Origin: Chloroflexota bacterium | GTDB taxonomy: Bacteria > Chloroflexota > Dehalococcoidia > UBA2979 | Length of the DNA stretch: 46,441 nt | Direction of reading: 5' to 3' | Assembly (NCBI GenBank): GCA_009840965.1 | Contig: VXMT01000159.1 | Coordinates: forward strand, 1-46,441 | Shown: positions 4,294 to 43,240 of the stretch, one piece after another | Numbering within the stretch: position 1 is the first letter of the stretch | Layout of the letters: each line of letters begins with the position of its first letter | Notes under the pieces: generated by a model | The model's database searches: none | Told to the model about the DNA's origin: nothing | Seen by the model: the letters and a program-made list of their open reading frames with translations, nothing else | Program-made: the position numbers and the translations under genes

Positions 4294-4668
4294 CTACCGG
4301 GCCTCGTTTCCGAGCAACCCCTCCGCTCGCAACTCCTCGAGGTGGGTGTCGTACAGCGCATCCGCCTCGAGGATCGCGCGCCGGTACCACTCATTCCACC
4401 GACCCGACTTGTCACCACCCAGCAGCAGGATCGCGTGACGCCGCGGGTCGAAGGCGAAGAGCACCCGCAACGCACCACCCTGTGAGGCCCTCAACTCCTT
4501 CATGTTGGCGTGGCGGGAGTTCGTGATCGTATCGACCACCGGCCGCCCGAGCCCCGGACCAACCTCCGCGAGCAGCATGACCCGATCGTCGAGCGCCTCC
4601 TGCTGTTCGATGCTCAGGCCTTCCCACCAGCCCTCGAACTGGTCGGTGTACTCCACTTCCCACGCCAT
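4294..4668 (-). CDS. Type II toxin, RelE/ParE superfamily (HigB / phage Gp49-like)
   Basis: 124 aa. W-V-Y N-terminus (MAWEVEYTDQFEGWW), KELRASQGGALRVLFAFDPRRHAILLLGGDKSG core and the toxin-first gene order typical of HigBA-type loci. Confidence 0.8.
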   Translation of the reverse strand: MAWEVEYTDQFEGWWEGLSIEQQEALDDRVMLLAEVGPGLGRPVVDTITNSRHANMKELRASQGGALRVLFAFDPRRHAILLLGGDKSGRWNEWYRRAILEADALYDTHLEELRAEGLLGNEAR

Positions 4669-4669
4669 G

Positions 4670-4697
4670 AGTATAAGTCATGCCTACTATAAGTCAA
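4670..4697 (-). promoter_or_regulatory. Direct-repeat operator/promoter candidate of the toxin-antitoxin operon
   Basis: On the minus strand TGACTTATA occurs twice with 16-nt spacing (plus-strand TATAAGTCA at 4672-4680 and 4688-4696), directly upstream of the toxin ATG (4668). It overlaps TTGACT, TATAGT and TATACT hexamers. This is the only AT-rich patch in the area. Confidence 0.4.
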
Positions 4698-16227: not shown

Positions 16228-17154
16228 TCACTCGCCCCGCAGGTAGCGTGCCGCGGCGCCCGCTGCGGAGACGGCCTCGCCGACCGCCTCAGCCACGTGG
16301 CCGCCGTAGCCACGGCGCACTGCGCCCGCCGCGAAGACGCCCGGCAGCGAGGTCGCGAACTCCGCGTCCGTGACGACGTAGCCGTCCTCGCACGCCACCT
16401 CGGGAGGCAGGAACTCGCTGTTGGGGGCGGAGCCGATGAAGGGGAAGACGGCCTTGCAGGCCAGATCGCTGAGGCTGCCGTCCCCGACGCGGCGCAGCCG
16501 CACGCCCTCGACCGCCTCGCTTCCGAGGATCGCGTCGACCTCGCAGCCCCAGACGAACTCGACGTTACCGAGCCGGGAGAGCCGGGCGACGTAGTCCTGC
16601 TTCGCACGCAGCGGGCTGCGCGCGACGACGTGGACGGTGCGGCAGAAGTCGGCGAGGACCAGCGCCTCCTGCGCCGCCGCATCACCGCCGCCGATCACGG
16701 CGACGTCTTCGCCTCGAAACAGGTGGCCGTCGCACCAGGCGCACTGCGAGACGCCCTTGCCGAGCAGATCGCTCTCCCCGGGCACCCCGAGCTGCTTGAG
16801 CCGCGCGCCCGAGGCGACGACCACGGCGCGTGCCCGGTGGCGCTCGCCGCCGGCGGTCGCGACGTGCCCGCCGCCCTCGGCCGCGAGCGTCTCGACGGCT
16901 GCCTCGATGATCACGACGCCGAGCGAGCGGCACTGCTCGACGAGGCCAACGGCGAGGTCGACGCCGGAGAGCGCGCCGGCAGCCGGGTAGCCGTCGAGTT
17001 GCTCGACGGTCGCGATCTGGCCGCCGAAGAGCGGCTCGCCCTCGAGCAGCGCCGTGCTGAGGCCGCGGCGGGCGGCGTGCTGCGCAGCGGTCAGGCCGGT
17101 CACGCCGCCGCCGATCACGAGCACGTCGTACCTGCCGTGGCGGCGCTGCACCAT
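16228..17154 (-). CDS. Low-molecular-weight thioredoxin-reductase-like FAD-dependent pyridine nucleotide-disulfide oxidoreductase
   Basis: 308 aa. FAD motif VLVIGGGVTG, redox-active CAWC (canonical TrxR has CATC) and a second dinucleotide motif VAVIGGGDAAAQEAL. Starts 19 nt after the upstream gene stop. Confidence 0.8.
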   Translation of the reverse strand: MVQRRHGRYDVLVIGGGVTGLTAAQHAARRGLSTALLEGEPLFGGQIATVEQLDGYPAAGALSGVDLAVGLVEQCRSLGVVIIEAAVETLAAEGGGHVATAGGERHRARAVVVASGARLKQLGVPGESDLLGKGVSQCAWCDGHLFRGEDVAVIGGGDAAAQEALVLADFCRTVHVVARSPLRAKQDYVARLSRLGNVEFVWGCEVDAILGSEAVEGVRLRRVGDGSLSDLACKAVFPFIGSAPNSEFLPPEVACEDGYVVTDAEFATSLPGVFAAGAVRRGYGGHVAEAVGEAVSAAGAAARYLRGE

Positions 17155-17173
17155 CGTCGGGCTCTTCCGCCCG

Positions 17174-18916
17174 TCAGCGCGTGCGTGCCGCGGCCAGCTT
17201 CGCCTCCCAGCCGGCGGGCAGCTCGATCTTCTTCGCCACCGGGTAACCGAGCCTGCCGTTGTGCGCGAAGGTGCAGGCGTTGTTGCGGAGCGGGTCGCCG
17301 CCCACGGCGATCATGAAGTCGTCGGGCTCGAAGACGATCGGCACGAGCCGGTTCGGGTCGTCCGAATCGAGGAAAACGCGCGGGATCCTCCCGAGGTTCA
17401 CCTCGGCCTCGAGCGAGCGGATCACGTGGTCGGTCCAATCTCCGAGGTAGCGCTCGAACTCCCAGGCAGGGAGCCGGGCGTGGTCGAAGAGGTACTGCTT
17501 CACGTCCTGCTTGCTCCAGCCGGCCTTCGCGATCGTCTGCGCCAAAATCGGGCTGAGCACCAGCAGCGGCCGCAGCGAGCCCATCGACTTGCCGACGGTG
17601 AAGATCAGCTGCCAGGTGTTCTGCTTGAGCACCGCGTCGGCGATGTAGGGCAGGACGCGCTCGGGCGTGTCGCCGTAGACCGAGGCCATCATGTCGCTGC
17701 CGGTGTAGCGCGCGATGGTGACGGTGTTGTCGCCTGCCTCGAAGCCCATCTCCACGCTGTTGGGCGGCCAGCCGATCCCGGCGAGGACGTCCTCGTTCTC
17801 CGCCAGTACGACGCGCCAGGTGTTGCCGAACGTCGCCTTGTCGTTCTTGTGCAGCAGGAAGCCGGCGACGTTGCGCAGGTAGAGGCGCCAAAAGCGCCCG
17901 ACCGAGGTGTTCGCCTGGAAGCCGTCGCGCAGCGCGCCCTGCTCATAGTTGAAGCCCAGCTCCTTGATGATCGGGCCGTTGAGCGTGATCAGCGTCTCGG
18001 CGCCGGGCGTGTTGCCGCTGTGCTCCACCCCGTACTCGGGATCGGCCATCGCCTCGGCGAGGGCGACCAGCACCGGCATGTACTCCGGCCGGCAGCCCGC
18101 CATCACGCCGTTCACCGCGATGCTCCAGATCGTGACGGCGCGGTTGTCCGCGAGGATCACGCCCAGCACCTCGTCCGGGTCGCGATCCGTGAAGGCGAGG
18201 AACTCCTCCACCTTCGCGATGGTCGGCGGCACGACCGGCAGGCCGTCGCTCCACTCGCACTCGGTGAAGTAGCGGTTGACCTCCTCGAAGCTGCCCTCGA
18301 AGACGATCTCGCGCGGCGAGGGCTCGTCGAACGCGGGGGCGTCCTCGGGAGCCTCGAGCAGGTTGGCAACGACCGCGTCGAGGGTCACATCGAGGACGTT
18401 TTGCTTCATCTCCTCGTCGCTCTGGTTGCCGACGTGGCCGGGCACGAGCGCGAGGGGCAGGTTCGGCAGCCCGAGGCCGGCCGAGGTCGTGCCGGCCTGT
18501 CCGATGAAGCCCTCGCAGACCAACGAGGAGGTAGGGACGCCCGCCAGCTCGCACGCCGCGCTTGCCCGCATCACGGCGGGCGTGCAGCTGCCTCAGCAGC
18601 CCATCCCGGAGATGGCGGCGTCGACCCCCAGCTCCTTGAAGCGCTGCGGGAGCGAGGCGAGAACCTCGCGCTCCTCGGCGCCGTGCGTGGTGCCGAACTC
18701 GCGCCAGCTCACGAAGCGCACGCCGGGGTAGCGGGCTTCGAGCTGCGGTTCGAGCAGGTCGAAGACCTCGTCGCCGCGGTACACGTAGTCCCAGAGCTGG
18801 GCGATCGTCTTGCCGGCCAGGGTGTCCAGCCTCGGCGCGAGCGGCATCGGCTGGAGCTGGCGCTTGCTGCGGGGCCAGACGACCGGGTAGCGGCCGCCGT
18901 CGGTGCTGTTCGTCAT
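17174..18916 (-). CDS. Probable selenoprotein: UGSC-motif protein fused to a large uncharacterised C-terminal domain (580 aa if TGA 18593-18595 is read as Sec)
   Basis: Track ORFs 18593-18916 and 17174-18574 share one frame and are separated only by one TGA plus 6 sense codons. The junction reads ...AAISGMGC-[TGA]-GSCTPAV.... A strong SD (GAGGGAG, 7 nt) precedes ATG 18916, and none precedes the downstream ORF. A stem-loop follows the TGA. Confidence 0.65.
18551..18585 (-). other. Candidate bacterial SECIS stem-loop
   Basis: mRNA +11 to +45 from the UGA is GCACGCCCGCCGUGAUGCGGGCAAGCGCGGCGUGC. Either 7 bp GCACGCC/GGCGUGC (+3 bp) or 6 bp GCCCGC/GCGGGC with apical loop CGUGAU. A GU-containing loop lies about 20 nt from the UGA. 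Confidence 0.45.
18593..18595 (-). other. In-frame TGA, candidate selenocysteine codon (residue 108)
   Basis: Plus-strand tca at 18593-18595. Flanked by a Cys codon on the 5' side and Gly-Ser-Cys on the 3' side. Confidence 0.6.
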
Positions 18917-21184: not shown

Positions 21185-21796
21185 CTACTCCCCGTTGCGC
21201 CGGGGCACCTCGAGCTGCTCCATCACCTGCTCGAAGACCGCGTACTCCTGCGCGCCTACCACGGCGTCGCGCTCGTTGAAGATGAAGGTCGGCACGCCGC
21301 GCACCCCGATCTCGCGGGCGATCGTGATGCGCTCGTCCACCTGCTCCCGGTAGCGCCCCTCGTCCAGCACCGCTCGCAGTTCGTCGCGGTCGAGCCCCTG
21401 CTCTCCGCCGATCTCAAGCAGCGTCTCGAGGTCCCCGATGTCGGCCTCGCCCTCGAAGTGCGCGGCGAAGAGCGCACGGTGCAGGCCCTCGTCGTCGTGG
21501 CCGATCTCCTGCGCGTACTCGGCGGTCTCGAGGGCGAGGTGGGAGTTCGGCGTGAAGCGTCGCCCGCGGCGGAAGGTGATGCCGGCGCGTTCGCCTCGCA
21601 GCTCCAGGTGCGTCGGCGGATCGTCCGGCTTCGTGCGCGGCTCGCGCTCACGGCCCTGGGGCGGAATCGAGGGGTCGAGCAGGTACGGCCACCAGTGCAC
21701 GTCCAGCTCGTACTCCCGCCGCAGCTTCTCGACCTCCACGAGGCCGACGTAGCACCACGGTCAGATGAAGTCGCTGACGATGATGAGTGAGGTCAT
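21185..21796 (-). CDS. Probable selenoprotein: DsbA/FrnE-like thiol-disulfide oxidoreductase with U-P-W-C active site (203 aa if TGA 21761-21763 is read as Sec)
   Basis: The track ORF (21185-21739) lacks the family N-terminus. Extending upstream in frame gives MTSLIIVSDFI-[TGA]-PWCYVGLVEVEKL..., i.e. the family CPWC motif with TGA at the first Cys. An ATG with SD-like GGAAGGCGAGGG lies upstream. The C-terminal GVRGVPTFIFN...GAQ is typical of DsbA-fold proteins. Confidence 0.7.
21729..21747 (-). other. Candidate bacterial SECIS stem-loop
   Basis: mRNA +17 to +35 from the UGA is UCGGCCUC-GUG-GAGGUCGA, an 8-bp stem (one G-U pair) with a GU-containing apical loop about 22 nt after the UGA. Confidence 0.4.
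21761..21763 (-). other. In-frame TGA, candidate selenocysteine codon (residue 12)
   Basis: Plus-strand tca at 21761-21763. Followed by Pro-Trp-Cys codons. Confidence 0.65.
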
Positions 21797-21938
21797 GACG
21801 GCCCTCGCCTTCCGGCCCGCGTCCGCTCACCTCAGTATGACGCCTCGGGATCGCGGCTGCGCGCTCGCCCGGCATCGCAAACGGCGTCGCTGCTACCATC
21901 CACGCCCCACCGCCACGGCCCGAAGGGAGCGAGAGCGC

Positions 21939-38853: not shown

Positions 38854-39888
38854 CTAGAGGGGCTTTCGAGCCAGGAAGCAGTACAGCGGTGTGAAGATGC
38901 CCGTCTTGCCGCCCGCGACATAGGCATCCGCGGTCCGATCCAGCATTCGGGCAACTTCCGCGGAGCCCTTCGGAAACAGCCGCACGAGTTCGGCCAGCCT
39001 CAGTCCTGTGATGAGCGCTTTGCGGCCCCACGGAAGCATGTGCAAGGTGCCGCCCAATGTCCCATGGCGACTCTCCATGGGTTGGTACCACGGTGTTGAT
39101 GGTCCCGTTGTGGCTCCTCGGTCTATCCCTTCGAGCACGTGGAATCCGGCCGCTTCGAGAGCGTGATCCACCTCCCTGAACGTCGCGATGTCGTTCAGCG
39201 CAATCCCGTGCATGAGGTCCAGCTTGATGGTCCGATGCCGGTCGTCGCTGGGATCGAACTCCTCCGTCAGACACATCTCCTGGCCCCAGAGGAGGGCGCC
39301 GGGCTTCAGCACGCGGAATATCTCCTCGAACGCGCCTTGCTTGTCCGGCGCATGGCACGTCGACTCGATGGCATAACCCCGGTCGAAGGTCTCGTCTCCT
39401 ATGGCGCTCATATCCATGAAGCTGCACGCCTCAAAATCGACCATGTGGTCCAGCCCGGACTCGGCGTTCAACCTCTTCGCCATATCCAGCTGGATCTCGT
39501 TGATGTTGATTCCTGTAACCCGGACACCAGCCTCACGTACGACGCGGCGCATTGGTCCGCCAACCCCACATCCAACATCGACCACCGTCATACCCTGCTG
39601 CAGCTCCAGCTTGGAGATCATCAACCGCTGATGCCGGACTATGGATTGCTCCAGCGTCTCATCAGGCCTGAGGGGTGCGAAGTGCAGGGACTCGCCCCAC
39701 AGGCAGACCATGAACGCGCTGGAAAGCGCGTAGTACTCGTTCGCCGTTTCGGCGTGGTCGGGGGCGCTCGCACCATCACCCCCCGCCACCCCCAGTCCGG
39801 TTCGGTCGTCGAAGTGCTGGATCCGACGCGAGACGTCGGATCGCTGGTAGCCGCGCCTGAGCTCCTTGAGCAGTCTGACTAGCTGCAT
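38854..39888 (-). CDS. SAM-dependent C-methyltransferase of the sterol 24-C-methyltransferase (SMT/ERG6) family
   Basis: SMT-region motifs YYALSSAFMVCLWGESLHFAP, SAM motif VVDVGCGVGGP, YAIESTCHAP and C-terminal PWYQP...GIFTPLYCFLARKP (Sterol_MT_C-like). The start is uncertain: ATG 39888 is preferred and ATG 39984 is possible. Confidence 0.8.
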   Translation of the reverse strand: MQLVRLLKELRRGYQRSDVSRRIQHFDDRTGLGVAGGDGASAPDHAETANEYYALSSAFMVCLWGESLHFAPLRPDETLEQSIVRHQRLMISKLELQQGMTVVDVGCGVGGPMRRVVREAGVRVTGININEIQLDMAKRLNAESGLDHMVDFEACSFMDMSAIGDETFDRGYAIESTCHAPDKQGAFEEIFRVLKPGALLWGQEMCLTEEFDPSDDRHRTIKLDLMHGIALNDIATFREVDHALEAAGFHVLEGIDRGATTGPSTPWYQPMESRHGTLGGTLHMLPWGRKALITGLRLAELVRLFPKGSAEVARMLDRTADAYVAGGKTGIFTPLYCFLARKPL

Positions 39889-40003
39889 GTCGTGGTACTC
39901 GCCTTTGCCTTTAGTCAAGCGTAGCCACACGCCGCGTTCGCGGCCAGCCGCGCCCTGGTGGGCGCGTCCGCCACGAGCCGGCAACCTCAGTCGCGATCGC
40001 GCG

Positions 40004-42028
40004 TCAGACGGGTAGCTCGCGCCGCCGCTCGGCGATGTGGAACTTCAGCTTCTTGCTCACCGAGAGCGACGGGAACGGGTCGATCTTGAGATTGTAGTTC
40101 TTTGGCGACACCTCGATCGTGAAGTGGTGCGCGAGCAGCAGCAGGTTGACCGCCAGCTGCAGCTCCATCCAGCGGTTGCCGAGGCAGGTGTGGGTGCCCA
40201 GCCCGAACGGGGCGTACCCGGGGCTGAGGTGCTCGTTGCGGTCGGGCAGATAGCGGTCGATATCGAACTCCCACGGATCGGGGAACACGCGGTCCATGTA
40301 GTGCGCGGCCGCCTGGGCGATGAACACCCGCGAACCCTGGGGAATCTCGTAGCCCTCCACCACGCACGCATTCATCACGTTCCGCACGGACATCGGAACG
40401 ATCGAGTACATGCGCATGGACTCCATGATGAAGCGGCGCGTGACGTCGACCGACTCCTCCGTGAAGTCCTCGCGTCCGGGATCGCCGCCATCGAACAGGG
40501 CGTCGGCCTCCTCGCGGATCCTGGCGTAGAGATCGGGCTGGGACGCCATCGCGTAGAGCGCGAAGCTCAGCCCATCGCCGAGGTAGACGCTGGCAATCAG
40601 CGGCGCCGAGAGGACGAAGCGCAGGTTCGACTCCGGGAGGAACGCAGGGTCGCTCGAGTGCATGCTGAGCAGGTCGTCCGCGAGATCGCGAGGGCGACCG
40701 GCCCGCTGGGCGGCCGTATGGACACCCTGGACGCGCTGCAGCAGCACCTCGATGCTCTTCGCGCGACGCCGCATCGCCGGGGTCTTGAGCATGAACTTGG
40801 GCATGACGCCCAGGACGTGCGTGGACAGCGCCCGTGTCTTGTACTTGACCAGATCGTCCAGGACGTCCTGCGAATCGACGCTGATCATCAGGGGCGAGAT
40901 CTGGGCGTTGATGAAGTGCCGGCACATAGCCACCGCGGGCATGGTGTCTCCGGCCTCCCAGGTCGCCATGTGTGATCGGATGTAGTCGTAGAGATTCTCC
41001 AGTTGCCCTTCCAGCCTCGCGCGCGAGTACCCCGGCGCCATCGCCTTGCGGAACCGGAAGTGATCGGCGCCGTCCAGCGCGGGCAGGATCCCGGATGCGC
41101 CATAGACCTTCTCGAAGTCCTGGAGGTAGTCCCGGGCGCGCAGGTACATGCGCCCCTGGCGGTGCGCCCAGTAGTTCGTCTCGGGCCCCGCCAGGATGAG
41201 CATGGGCTGCTGGAACGGCGGGTTGACCTGGTACACGGGCCCGTACTGCTCCGCGAGATCCGCGAACAGGGCAGGGAGGTTCCCGTCGCGAAGATGCCGA
41301 TGCAGCGCGAACTTGTGCAGCGGCACCTTCGGGATTGACTTGGTCAGGCCGCGCCGCAGCAACGGGACGTTGATGTTCTGGCTTACCGCCTCGGCGATCG
41401 CCCGGCCGATCAGGTCCATCCGGCAGATCAGCTCGATCCGCTCCTCCGACTCGTCATCGAGCTGGAACATGAAGCGGAAGACATCGCACGTGTCGATGAG
41501 GGCGACAATGATGATATCGCGAGGTGTGGGAATCTCGTTGGTGAAGATCACCTTGCTGATGCGCGTCTTGACGAACTCGGCGGCGGTGCCTTCCCCCTCG
41601 CTGCTGAACATCTCCGTCTGCCAGGCGGTACGAGCCAGCGTCCAGAAGTCGCCTTCGTGATGCTCGAGGATCTTCAGGTCAACCAGACGGTCCAGCGACA
41701 GGTCGATGATCGTCTCTGCCCGGGGAGCGAGCCGCTCGATCCAGTACTGGGCATTCCGCTGCGCCGGTTCGGCGGCGATCTGCTTGAGGACGGGATCCAG
41801 GGCCGGGTCACCCGTCTCCGTCTCGTCGAGCAGGATCAGGGAGTCCATGTCCGTGTCGATACGCGAGATGAGGGAGAGCTCCGCGAGCACGGCGCCGGCA
41901 ACGGCGCAGTTCAGACTCCAGCCGGGTACCTGGTGAAAGTACCCGCTCTCCTCGTTGAGCAGCATCAGGACGAGCTCTTCGGGCAACGTCAACAGTTGCG
42001 TCGCAACAGGATCCCTGGCGAGGGTCAT
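40004..42028 (-). CDS. Fusion protein: N-terminal GPP34/GOLPH3-family domain plus C-terminal cytochrome P450
   Basis: Start at ATG 42028 (SD GGAG 8 nt upstream), 674 aa. GPP34-like LPEELVLMLLNEESGYF...AVAGAVLAELSLISRI...GDPALDPVLKQI. P450 ExxR (ESMRMY) and heme loop FGLGTHTCLG. The track ORF extension to 42904 is antisense to the Rieske gene and is rejected. Confidence 0.8.
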   Translation of the reverse strand: MTLARDPVATQLLTLPEELVLMLLNEESGYFHQVPGWSLNCAVAGAVLAELSLISRIDTDMDSLILLDETETGDPALDPVLKQIAAEPAQRNAQYWIERLAPRAETIIDLSLDRLVDLKILEHHEGDFWTLARTAWQTEMFSSEGEGTAAEFVKTRISKVIFTNEIPTPRDIIIVALIDTCDVFRFMFQLDDESEERIELICRMDLIGRAIAEAVSQNINVPLLRRGLTKSIPKVPLHKFALHRHLRDGNLPALFADLAEQYGPVYQVNPPFQQPMLILAGPETNYWAHRQGRMYLRARDYLQDFEKVYGASGILPALDGADHFRFRKAMAPGYSRARLEGQLENLYDYIRSHMATWEAGDTMPAVAMCRHFINAQISPLMISVDSQDVLDDLVKYKTRALSTHVLGVMPKFMLKTPAMRRRAKSIEVLLQRVQGVHTAAQRAGRPRDLADDLLSMHSSDPAFLPESNLRFVLSAPLIASVYLGDGLSFALYAMASQPDLYARIREEADALFDGGDPGREDFTEESVDVTRRFIMESMRMYSIVPMSVRNVMNACVVEGYEIPQGSRVFIAQAAAHYMDRVFPDPWEFDIDRYLPDRNEHLSPGYAPFGLGTHTCLGNRWMELQLAVNLLLLAHHFTIEVSPKNYNLKIDPFPSLSVSKKLKFHIAERRRELPV

Positions 42029-42193
42029 CGGTCCCGCTCCTAACCCATCACCTTCAAGCGTAGCCACCGAGGTCACGCCCCGCAAGGCGATCCCGTACGG
42101 GTGCGACGGAGGAAATATGTCTCGTATCCTAGAAGGGACACCAGCCGGCCAGGGAGCCGTCGCCCCTCGATTGCGGGTGAGGAGTGGCGAACG
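42029..42193. promoter_or_regulatory. Divergent intergenic region between the P450 fusion and Rieske genes (promoters/operator expected)
   Basis: 165 bp. Contains the 10-bp palindrome CCCGTACGGG (42092-42101) and an AT-richer patch GGAAATATGTCTCGTATCCTAGAA. No specific site can be assigned. Confidence 0.3.
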
Positions 42194-43240
42194 ATGGTAG
42201 CCCGACATGGCGAGCCTGCGATCGTCGCGCTGCCTCCGTTCCCCGAGGGCTGGTACTTCGTCACGAGCCGCAAGGCCCTGCAGAAGGCCGGGCTGATCCA
42301 GACGACCTGGATGGGCGAGAACATCGTCGTCTGGAGCGACGATGAGGGGCGCGCCTGCGTCGCCGAGGCCTTCTGCCCGCACCTGGGCTCCGAACTCGGA
42401 CCGGACGCCGGAGGGCGCGTCTCCGCCGGGCGATTGGTCTGCCCCTTCCACGGCTTCGAGTTCGATACGACGGGCCAGTGCGTCGACACCCCCTACGCGC
42501 CCCCGCCCAGGTCCGCCAGGCTGCGCGTCTTCGAGACACGCGAGATCGCGGGCCTGATCTTCGGCTGGTGGGGAATCGGGGGGCGGGAGCCGCAGTGGGG
42601 CCTGCCCGAGGAGGCGCCGGACCAGACGGGCTGGAGCGAGGTGTACGTCCAGACGCTCCGCTTCCCCGGCCACCCCCAGGAGATCGCGGAGAACTCGGTC
42701 GACCTGGCCCACCTCCGCTACATCCACGGCTACGACAGCGTCAACCGCGTCGAACCGGCCTCGATTGACGGGCACCACATGGTGAGCCGGTTTGACTTCA
42801 CGAGTCGCCGCAAGGTCGCCAGAGTGGCGACGCTCACCTTCGAGATCTCCGCCGACACCGACATCTACGGGTTGGGCTACTCGTTCGTGAGCATCCGGGA
42901 GCACACGATCGGCATGGATATGCGCCTGTGGATCCTGGCGACGCCCGTCGACGGCGAGCTCGTCGACATGACGCTGGCCTCGCAGGTGCGGGAGATCCGC
43001 AACCCGAAGCGACTGTTCGTTGGCCTGGGACTCCTCCCGACGAGGCTGCGCGCGCCGCTCATGAACAGGTTCATGGCGTCCCGGCAGCGCCAGGACGTGC
43101 TCGACGACGTCGTGATCTGGGGGCGCAAGAAGTACGTCTCGCCTCCGCGCCTCAATCGTTCCGACGGCGAGATCATGGCCTACCGGGCCTACTGCGCCCA
43201 GTTCTACCCCGACCCGAGCGACTGCAGCGCCACGTCCTGA
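42194..43240 (+). CDS. Rieske [2Fe-2S] non-heme-iron oxygenase (oxygenase alpha-subunit type, KshA/Neverland-like class)
   Basis: ATG 42194 with SD GAGGAG upstream, 348 aa. Rieske ligands CPHLG...CPFHG. Mononuclear-iron motif ENSVDLAHLRYIH (D-x2-H-x4-H). Confidence 0.85.
   Translation: MVARHGEPAIVALPPFPEGWYFVTSRKALQKAGLIQTTWMGENIVVWSDDEGRACVAEAFCPHLGSELGPDAGGRVSAGRLVCPFHGFEFDTTGQCVDTPYAPPPRSARLRVFETREIAGLIFGWWGIGGREPQWGLPEEAPDQTGWSEVYVQTLRFPGHPQEIAENSVDLAHLRYIHGYDSVNRVEPASIDGHHMVSRFDFTSRRKVARVATLTFEISADTDIYGLGYSFVSIREHTIGMDMRLWILATPVDGELVDMTLASQVREIRNPKRLFVGLGLLPTRLRAPLMNRFMASRQRQDVLDDVVIWGRKKYVSPPRLNRSDGEIMAYRAYCAQFYPDPSDCSATS

Follow-up and report, generated by a model that had tools for sequence, protein, structure and literature searches.

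A FrnE/DsbA-like gene of a Dehalococcoidia bacterium, truncated by annotation, very probably encodes a member of the known DsbA-like selenoprotein family

DsbA-like selenoproteins (COG2761, UxxC) were defined as a family in 2005 from nine Sargasso Sea sequences (PMC1088965), as the original prediction for the present locus had correctly stated. Members were reported in 2006 from Anaeromyxobacter, Desulfovibrio and Desulfotomaculum (PMC1794560), the family was counted in 41 organisms in 2016 (PMC5029168), and a 2026 review carries the entry "DsbA-like protein form 1, PF01323, UxxC" (PMC13188914). Two cysteine-based systems are also close by fold. FrnE of D. radiodurans (DR_0659; PDB 5CNW, 5CP1 and 5E59) is a cytoplasmic disulfide oxidoreductase/isomerase; it reduces insulin and acts as a disulfide isomerase, and its mutant shows sensitivity to cadmium and to diamide (PMC8945050). 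Periplasmic DsbA of E. coli has a CPHC active site and is reoxidised by DsbB.

Here we analyse a FrnE/DsbA-like gene within a 46,441-nucleotide stretch of Dehalococcoidia DNA, referred to throughout as the window. In common with the DsbA-like selenoprotein family the gene has a DSBA domain, a predicted Sec at the first Cys of CxxC, widespread Cys homologues and a SECIS-type hairpin. Nothing essential differs between the two, the comparison being with the family as described rather than with the reference sequences AACY01178397 and NIP15863.1; what is particular to the window gene is that it comes from a Dehalococcoidia lineage of high GC, where most forms have Sec and the hairpin is nearly invariant. 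The gene is a mis-annotated member of this known family, and the result is an annotation correction, not a discovery, which adds no new biology on DsbA-like selenoproteins. Its main value is annotation hygiene, as the Sec forms retrieved from protein databases start at the GUG of their own SECIS loop and have lost the catalytic centre. No NCBIfam model of this selenoprotein family was reached by the product; its one NCBIfam match, to part of the model of the Rcas_1661 seleno-lipoprotein, fell far below cut-off and was rejected.

The coding sequence occupies 21185..21796 on the minus strand and comprises 203 codons, including Sec12, followed by TAG, as judged from translation, the Pfam match and the match to FrnE. 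The program-made ORF (21185-21739) begins at a GTG and misses the codons upstream of it. This start is internal and leaves the N-terminus out, as had been noticed from the sequence, and we add that the same GTG is the apical loop of the hairpin described below. Read from 21796 to 21185, the frame gives MTSLIIVSDFI, the TGA and then PWCYVGL…, with eleven sense codons preceding the TGA, and translation so confirms the proposed in-frame extension from the ATG at 21796. The pieces of the minus-strand translation are MTSLIIVSDFI, the TGA, PWCYVGLVEVEKLRREY…GVRGVPTFIFNERDAVVGAQEY…PRRNGE, and PWCYVGLVEVEKL… runs from the TGA to the TAG at 21187-21185 without a further stop or frameshift. The ATG (21794..21796, minus strand) was read from the sequence and is shared by the closest orthologues (L001, L012-L019, L029 and L030), in which MTSLIIVSDFI starts at the same codon while the sequence 5' of it diverges. 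The purine-rich stretch that had been likened to a Shine-Dalgarno element is GAGGG at 21802..21806 (minus strand), separated from the ATG by a spacer of 5 nt, and may serve as one. The true stop, TAG at 21185..21187 on the same strand, follows from the sequence and its translation. With the internal stop replaced by Cys, the read-through product matched Pfam DSBA (PF01323) with E=1.8e-31 over residues 4-191 of 203 and profile positions 2-189 of 191. The match starts at residue 4, and the eleven codons before the TGA therefore belong to the domain. On sequence grounds it is very probable that 21796-21185 (minus strand) is a real gene for a small thiol-disulfide enzyme in which Sec stands in place of the first catalytic Cys.

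The in-frame TGA, the proposed Sec codon for residue 12, lies at 21761..21763 (minus strand), and alignment and conservation place it at the first Cys of CxxC. The predicted redox motif U-P-W-C (Sec12-Pro13-Trp14-Cys15) spans 21752..21763 on that strand and is aligned to C22-P-W-C25 of D. radiodurans FrnE, with IVSDFI[U]PWCYVG opposite IWSDIACPWCYIG and the TGA column at Cys22 of CPWC. FrnE is the nearest solved structure (PDB 5CNW/5CP1; phmmer E=5e-18, residues 6-185). Full-length Cys homologues carry SDF[IV]CPWC, again with the first Cys in the TGA column, and the proposal that the TGA takes the place of this residue is upheld by them, by the Pfam DSBA match and by the alignment to FrnE 5CNW. 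Cys15 is the sole cysteine of the 203-residue product, and Sec12 and Cys15 would be its only redox residues. The cis-Pro P169, in GVPTF, is invariant.

The window protein and FrnE of D. radiodurans have in common a CP(W/F)C-type motif near the N-terminus, a thioredoxin fold of DsbA-like type that carries a helical insertion, and the lack of a signal peptide. A cytoplasmic location is likely, because a signal peptide would not fit into the 11 residues that precede the active site. The window protein differs in its predicted Sec in place of Cys22 and in its length of 203 residues, against 260 in the crystallised chain. It is also without the C-terminal CxxxxC tail, through which D. radiodurans FrnE has its active site regenerated, and there is no Cys after Cys15. 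The tail is likewise missing from the FrnE proteins of S. roseofulvus and D. maricopensis (PMC8945050), and because some FrnE homologues lack it, it is not strictly defining for the subfamily. Of the features that describe the FrnE subfamily (cd03024), the window protein has the N-terminal active site, the cytoplasmic DsbA-like domain and the similarity to FrnE, and is without CxxxxC. With periplasmic DsbA it shares PF01323, the thioredoxin-like fold and a CxxC-type centre; unlike DsbA it has no signal peptide, and its active-site dipeptide is PW where DsbA has PH. No match to the DsbB or VKOR families was found among the window ORFs. In annotation the protein should be kept apart from the periplasmic DsbA proteins that form disulfide bonds.

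A homologue search of a collection of 5.8 billion proteins returned 243 proteins. The close homologues, from 95% to ~54% identity, are nearly all of 181-190 residues and start MEVEKL…; P0001-P0016 among them begin with MEVEKL and carry the same truncation as the window ORF. All Sec forms retrieved from the collection are cut to ~184 residues and are without the catalytic centre. Six of the truncated proteins (P0003, P0015, P0042, P0087, P0086 and P0099) were traced back to their contigs, which represent 8 distinct loci; TGA stands at the same codon everywhere, preceded in 8/8 by an open and conserved N-terminal peptide. We also scanned species representatives, one genome per species, which gave 80 loci, 78 of them containing the site. 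Nearly all of these come from MAGs with the label Dehalococcoidia or Chloroflexi/Chloroflexota, and the best match, at 94%, is Chloroflexi bacterium SB0662_bin_38. TGA occupies the site in 62/78, at identities from 94% to ~46%, and TGC or TGT in the other 16/78. In a scan of metagenomes the codon was TGA in 48/68 loci and a Cys codon in 20/68. After removal of duplicates, the distinct genomic segments from all loci number 64 with TGA and 15 with TGC/TGT.

The original prediction had named TGC in close relatives, together with further disabling changes in this copy, as the mark of a pseudogene. The reverse was found: relatives at 86-94% identity (L012-L019, L029 and L030) all have TGA, and no other disabling mutation occurs among the close relatives or the 62/78 species genomes with TGA. 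The upstream peptide (S/T)x(I/V)(I/V)VSD(F/Y)(I/V) is kept while its codons vary synonymously (agc/tcg/tcc/tca, gac/gat). In more than 100 loci, VSDF(I/V) before the TGA and PWCY(V/I)GL after it are kept with synonymous variation. A rough neighbour-joining tree placed the window gene within a tight all-Sec clade and the Cys forms at several separate places, one of them (L066) nested among Sec forms; in L066 the hairpin is lost.

The 8-bp stem-loop with apical GUG that had been predicted at +17 to +35 from the UGA was found as described, at 21729..21747 on the minus strand, by folding and comparison. It reads UCGGCCUC-GUG-GAGGUCGA, with 8 bp and a 3-nt loop, and the loop (21737..21739, minus strand) is the GTG that serves as false start of the ORF finders and of public annotations (184 aa, MEVEKL…). 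Counting the T of TGA as 1, stem positions 17-24 pair with 28-35, the loop is 25-27, and the hairpin begins 13 nt after the UGA; the segment also encodes G-L-V-E-V-E. Bacterial SECIS elements are described as stem-loops directly 3' of the UGA whose small apical loop contains a G (PMC1088965), and the window hairpin has these features, lying directly after the UGA with a small G-bearing loop. Single-sequence folds show a possible extended lower stem around it (21719..21760, minus strand), which is not established because the pairing partners vary among orthologues.

Comparison among orthologues carries the case for this element. Of 52 distinct TGA sequences (taken as 51 nt from the TGA), all have UCGGCCUC-NNN-GAGGUCGA at positions 17-35. 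Across these 52, 99% of pair cells are standard pairs and six of the 8 pairs are invariant. The only double (compensatory) change is at pair 21-31, which is C-G in 49 and U-A in 3; it is possibly a single evolutionary event, and covariation support is thin. The closing pair is open in 4/52 sequences, giving a 5-nt loop. Loop base 1 is G in 52/52, the loop being GUG in 34, GUC in 8, GGC in 5 and another triplet in 5. The metagenome set contains further one-sided changes that preserve pairing (U-A to U-G, G-C to G-U). Peptide GLVEVE is encoded by the same nucleotides, and selection on it could account for part of the conservation of the stem, but the contrast at synonymous sites argues against this: third-codon positions 18, 21, 24, 30 and 33 within the stem are 94-100% conserved in TGA forms versus 53-80% in Cys forms, while flanking third-codon positions are variable in TGA and Cys forms alike. 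In the Cys forms only 3-7 of the 8 stem pairs are left.

Folding energies were less informative. The hairpin alone folds at -11.5 kcal/mol (z=-2.65), equalled by 3/200 shuffles, and the UGA plus 46 nt at -25.1 kcal/mol (z=-2.98), equalled by 1/200; a wider 71-nt slice cannot be told apart from its shuffles (z=-0.10). The single-sequence energies, only moderately unusual, are therefore weak evidence in a sequence of 70% GC. At gathering threshold Rfam gave no match in the whole window, and a search of 21650-21830 at E<=10 returned noise, including a mis-registered SECIS_3 match (E=3.7), and no significant SECIS model. The proposed check on a SECIS element accordingly came out as a G-first hairpin 13 nt after the UGA, near-invariant in TGA forms and lost in Cys forms, with nothing significant from Rfam. 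The numeric limits on spacing and loop size by which we judged the hairpin are those that we take the bSECISearch description to set.

The same GTG gives rise to a different account of the gene, in which the true product would be the 184 residues from GTG 21739, a DsbA fold without CxxC, and the upstream codons an untranslated leader. GTG is a legal start codon and public gene callers do annotate the protein from it, with the MEVEKL start. In the supposed leader, however, lie the codons for the first β-strand of the DSBA domain, which is conserved, and for the PWC of this domain, and the leader is kept at the amino-acid level with synonymous nucleotide changes. Moreover, no Shine-Dalgarno sequence precedes the GTG, which is placed in the loop of a stable hairpin, and in relatives with the loops GUC, GGC, GUU and others (for example L008 and L021) the start is removed and the gene is intact. 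We consider a 184-residue product very unlikely. That the gene encodes a Sec-containing DsbA-like protein which automated annotation truncates is supported by the alignment, the conservation of the TGA, the hairpin and the database proteins that start MEVEKL.

We searched for the Sec machinery with ARAGORN and with tblastn, using approximate E. coli SelA, SelB and SelD queries. Across the 46-kb window and ~1.3 Mb of related loci these searches revealed no selA, selB, selD or tRNA-Sec, and a 10-kb left extension of the window (through the identical protein in GCA_965243685.1) contained no sel genes. Two SelB-like tblastn matches (L068 and L129) involve the GTPase N-terminus and were rejected; the ORF of L068 reads as BipA/TypA, and L129 is presumably the same. 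The stop codons of 35 coding-like window ORFs are 20 TAG, 15 TGA and 0 TAA. GC content is ~70% throughout the window, and the absence of TAA may simply reflect it. TGA ends 15/35 ORFs, and therefore the code is standard and an internal TGA needs special decoding.

When the window was scanned for more in-frame TGAs with flanking coding signal, a single further site emerged; the other candidates were ordinary gene junctions. This site belongs to a second predicted selenoprotein gene, of the UGSC family, a 580-codon ORF at 17174-18916 on the minus strand, ~2 kb from the FrnE-like gene. Its TGA (18593-18595, minus strand) stands in GMGC-TGA-GSC, where UGSC proteins are known to have their Sec, and the Pfam UGSC profile match is broken exactly at 18595-18593. 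The TGA is kept at three of the loci compared (L001, L014 and L092). An N-terminal UGSC domain is fused to ~390 C-terminal residues without a Pfam match. With the NCBIfam model UGSC_fam, whose cut-off is 125, it scores 51.7, and the gene is therefore an atypical long form. Public gene calls split it into products of 107 and 465 aa. It is followed by a thioredoxin-reductase-like flavoprotein gene (16231-17310, minus strand).

The BSepDB survey, in which selenoproteins were sought only in genomes with at least 2 Sec-pathway genes, places two Dehalococcoidia MAGs in its top ten, and these have 46 and 49 selenoprotein genes (PMC13326102). One of these belongs to the same UUID-named MAG series as loci found here, and the genes of this clade are probably already listed there. 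The standard code, the UGSC gene and the Dehalococcoidia of BSepDB argue indirectly that the Sec machinery is present in the source genome. The FrnE-like gene and the nearby UGSC gene together mark the source Dehalococcoidia as a probable selenocysteine user, which bears on the reconstruction of the organism's redox metabolism and of its trace-element needs.

Two further readings draw on the machinery not having been seen in the window and the ~1.3 Mb of related loci. The UGA might be read through without selenium, by near-cognate Trp or Cys or by a reassignment in the lineage, with the hairpin as a generic stimulator, since stem-loops 3' of stop codons can promote read-through. Reassignment does not agree with the use of TGA as terminator in 15/35 window ORFs. 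Decoding without selenium would also not explain why the recoded codon falls exactly on the catalytic Cys, why the alternative in relatives is always Cys (TGC/TGT), the signature of a Sec/Cys pair, why a second TGA in the window sits at the known UGSC-family Sec site, or why the hairpin has bacterial SECIS hallmarks, with a small G-bearing loop at the expected spacing; we regard selenium-free read-through as extremely improbable. A pseudogene, made from a Cys-type FrnE-like gene by a single nonsense mutation, is scarcely credible, for although TGA is one transition from TGC and Cys-type homologues exist, the same TGA recurs in 64 distinct sequences from genomes and at 48 metagenome loci, and a nonsense lesion would not survive in dozens of species; the reading frame is also intact to either side without secondary lesions, the upstream codons vary synonymously and the hairpin is co-conserved.

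Returning to the selenoprotein, the 203-residue product would, with high confidence from the sequence evidence, be a cytoplasmic FrnE-type thiol-disulfide oxidoreductase of DsbA fold with the active site Sec12-Pro-Trp-Cys15. Through the bacterial Sec pathway, the UGA at codon 12 would be read as selenocysteine. SelB is predicted to bind, with its Sec-tRNA(Sec), to the 8-bp hairpin with the G-first triloop, 13 nt 3' of the UGA, and to bring Sec to the ribosome, where it would compete with release factor 2. In UxxC oxidoreductases Sec acts as the attacking nucleophile. Here, the selenolate would take this role in place of the N-terminal Cys of CxxC, and Sec12 would cycle with Cys15 via a selenenylsulfide while disulfides of partner proteins are reduced or isomerised. 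The enzymatic activity itself is proposed by homology to D. radiodurans FrnE.

Concerning the history of the site, we suggest only tentatively that Sec is ancestral and dominant in this Dehalococcoidia FrnE-like clade, and that at least 3-4 lineages have independently gone back to Cys, after which the hairpin decayed in each. It is possible, though we would put it no more strongly, that the SECIS element is an unusually rigid one, of 8 bp and a 3-nt loop at a fixed spacing of 13 nt, which locks the peptide as G-L-V-E-V-E or G-L-G-E-V-D. If true, the clade would be a natural data set on how a coding-region SECIS constrains protein sequence, and on the rate at which it erodes after Sec is lost.

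A distant lineage of lower GC in the metagenomes (L160:108, L170:940 and L177:1681), at 31-35% identity, also has TGA at this site, in the motif FTD(F/Y)V-TGA-PWCYLSTGRIEKL. In the L160, L170 and L177 sequences the downstream hairpin is a different one, which begins almost at the UGA (z=-4.0), and the Sec form therefore occurs with at least two unrelated SECIS designs.

The gene neighbourhood is not conserved between lineages and gives no functional clue. In several other Dehalococcoidia lineages (L004-L011, loci around P0042, P0087, P0086 and P0099), the gene lies a few kb from DoxX, a MaoC-dehydratase and a menaquinone cluster with MenA to MenF-like Pfam families. In the window lineage it is near MFS, luciferase-like and xanthine-dehydrogenase-type genes, and not near DoxX, MaoC or menaquinone genes. 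The genes of the window are mostly luciferase-like monooxygenases (six copies), family III CoA-transferase, enoyl-CoA hydratases, MFS transporters, xanthine-dehydrogenase-type molybdoenzymes and NHL-repeat proteins, a content that we take to resemble that of SAR202-type Dehalococcoidia. Proteins identical to those of the window occur in GCA_965243685.1 (contig CBDEVK010000007.1, 1.08 Mb) and in the metagenomes SAMN12347671, SAMN12347672 and SAMN12347686.

Elsewhere in the window, 38857-43237 is a stretch of lower GC (0.65 vs 0.70 elsewhere). It holds a methyltransferase with a sterol methyltransferase C-terminal domain (38857-39984, minus strand; PF08498, E=1.7e-18), a cytochrome P450 together with a GPP34-like domain (both inside 40007-42904, minus strand), and a Rieske/KshA-type oxygenase (42044-43237, plus strand). 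Possibly this is a Dehalococcoidia island devoted to sterol or steroid side-chain modification. Within the ORF of the Rieske oxygenase, ARAGORN called an 82-nt 'tRNA-Arg(ccg)' at 42352-42433 (plus strand) with the anticodon at position 39; Rfam at gathering threshold found no tRNA at 42352-42433, and the call is probably a false positive. A gene at 4297-4677 (minus strand) encodes a Gp49/HigB-like toxin domain (PF05973, E=6.7e-17). The gene call on its NCBI contig counterpart also includes an HTH_3 domain, which beside the HigB-like domain suggests a toxin-antitoxin pair.
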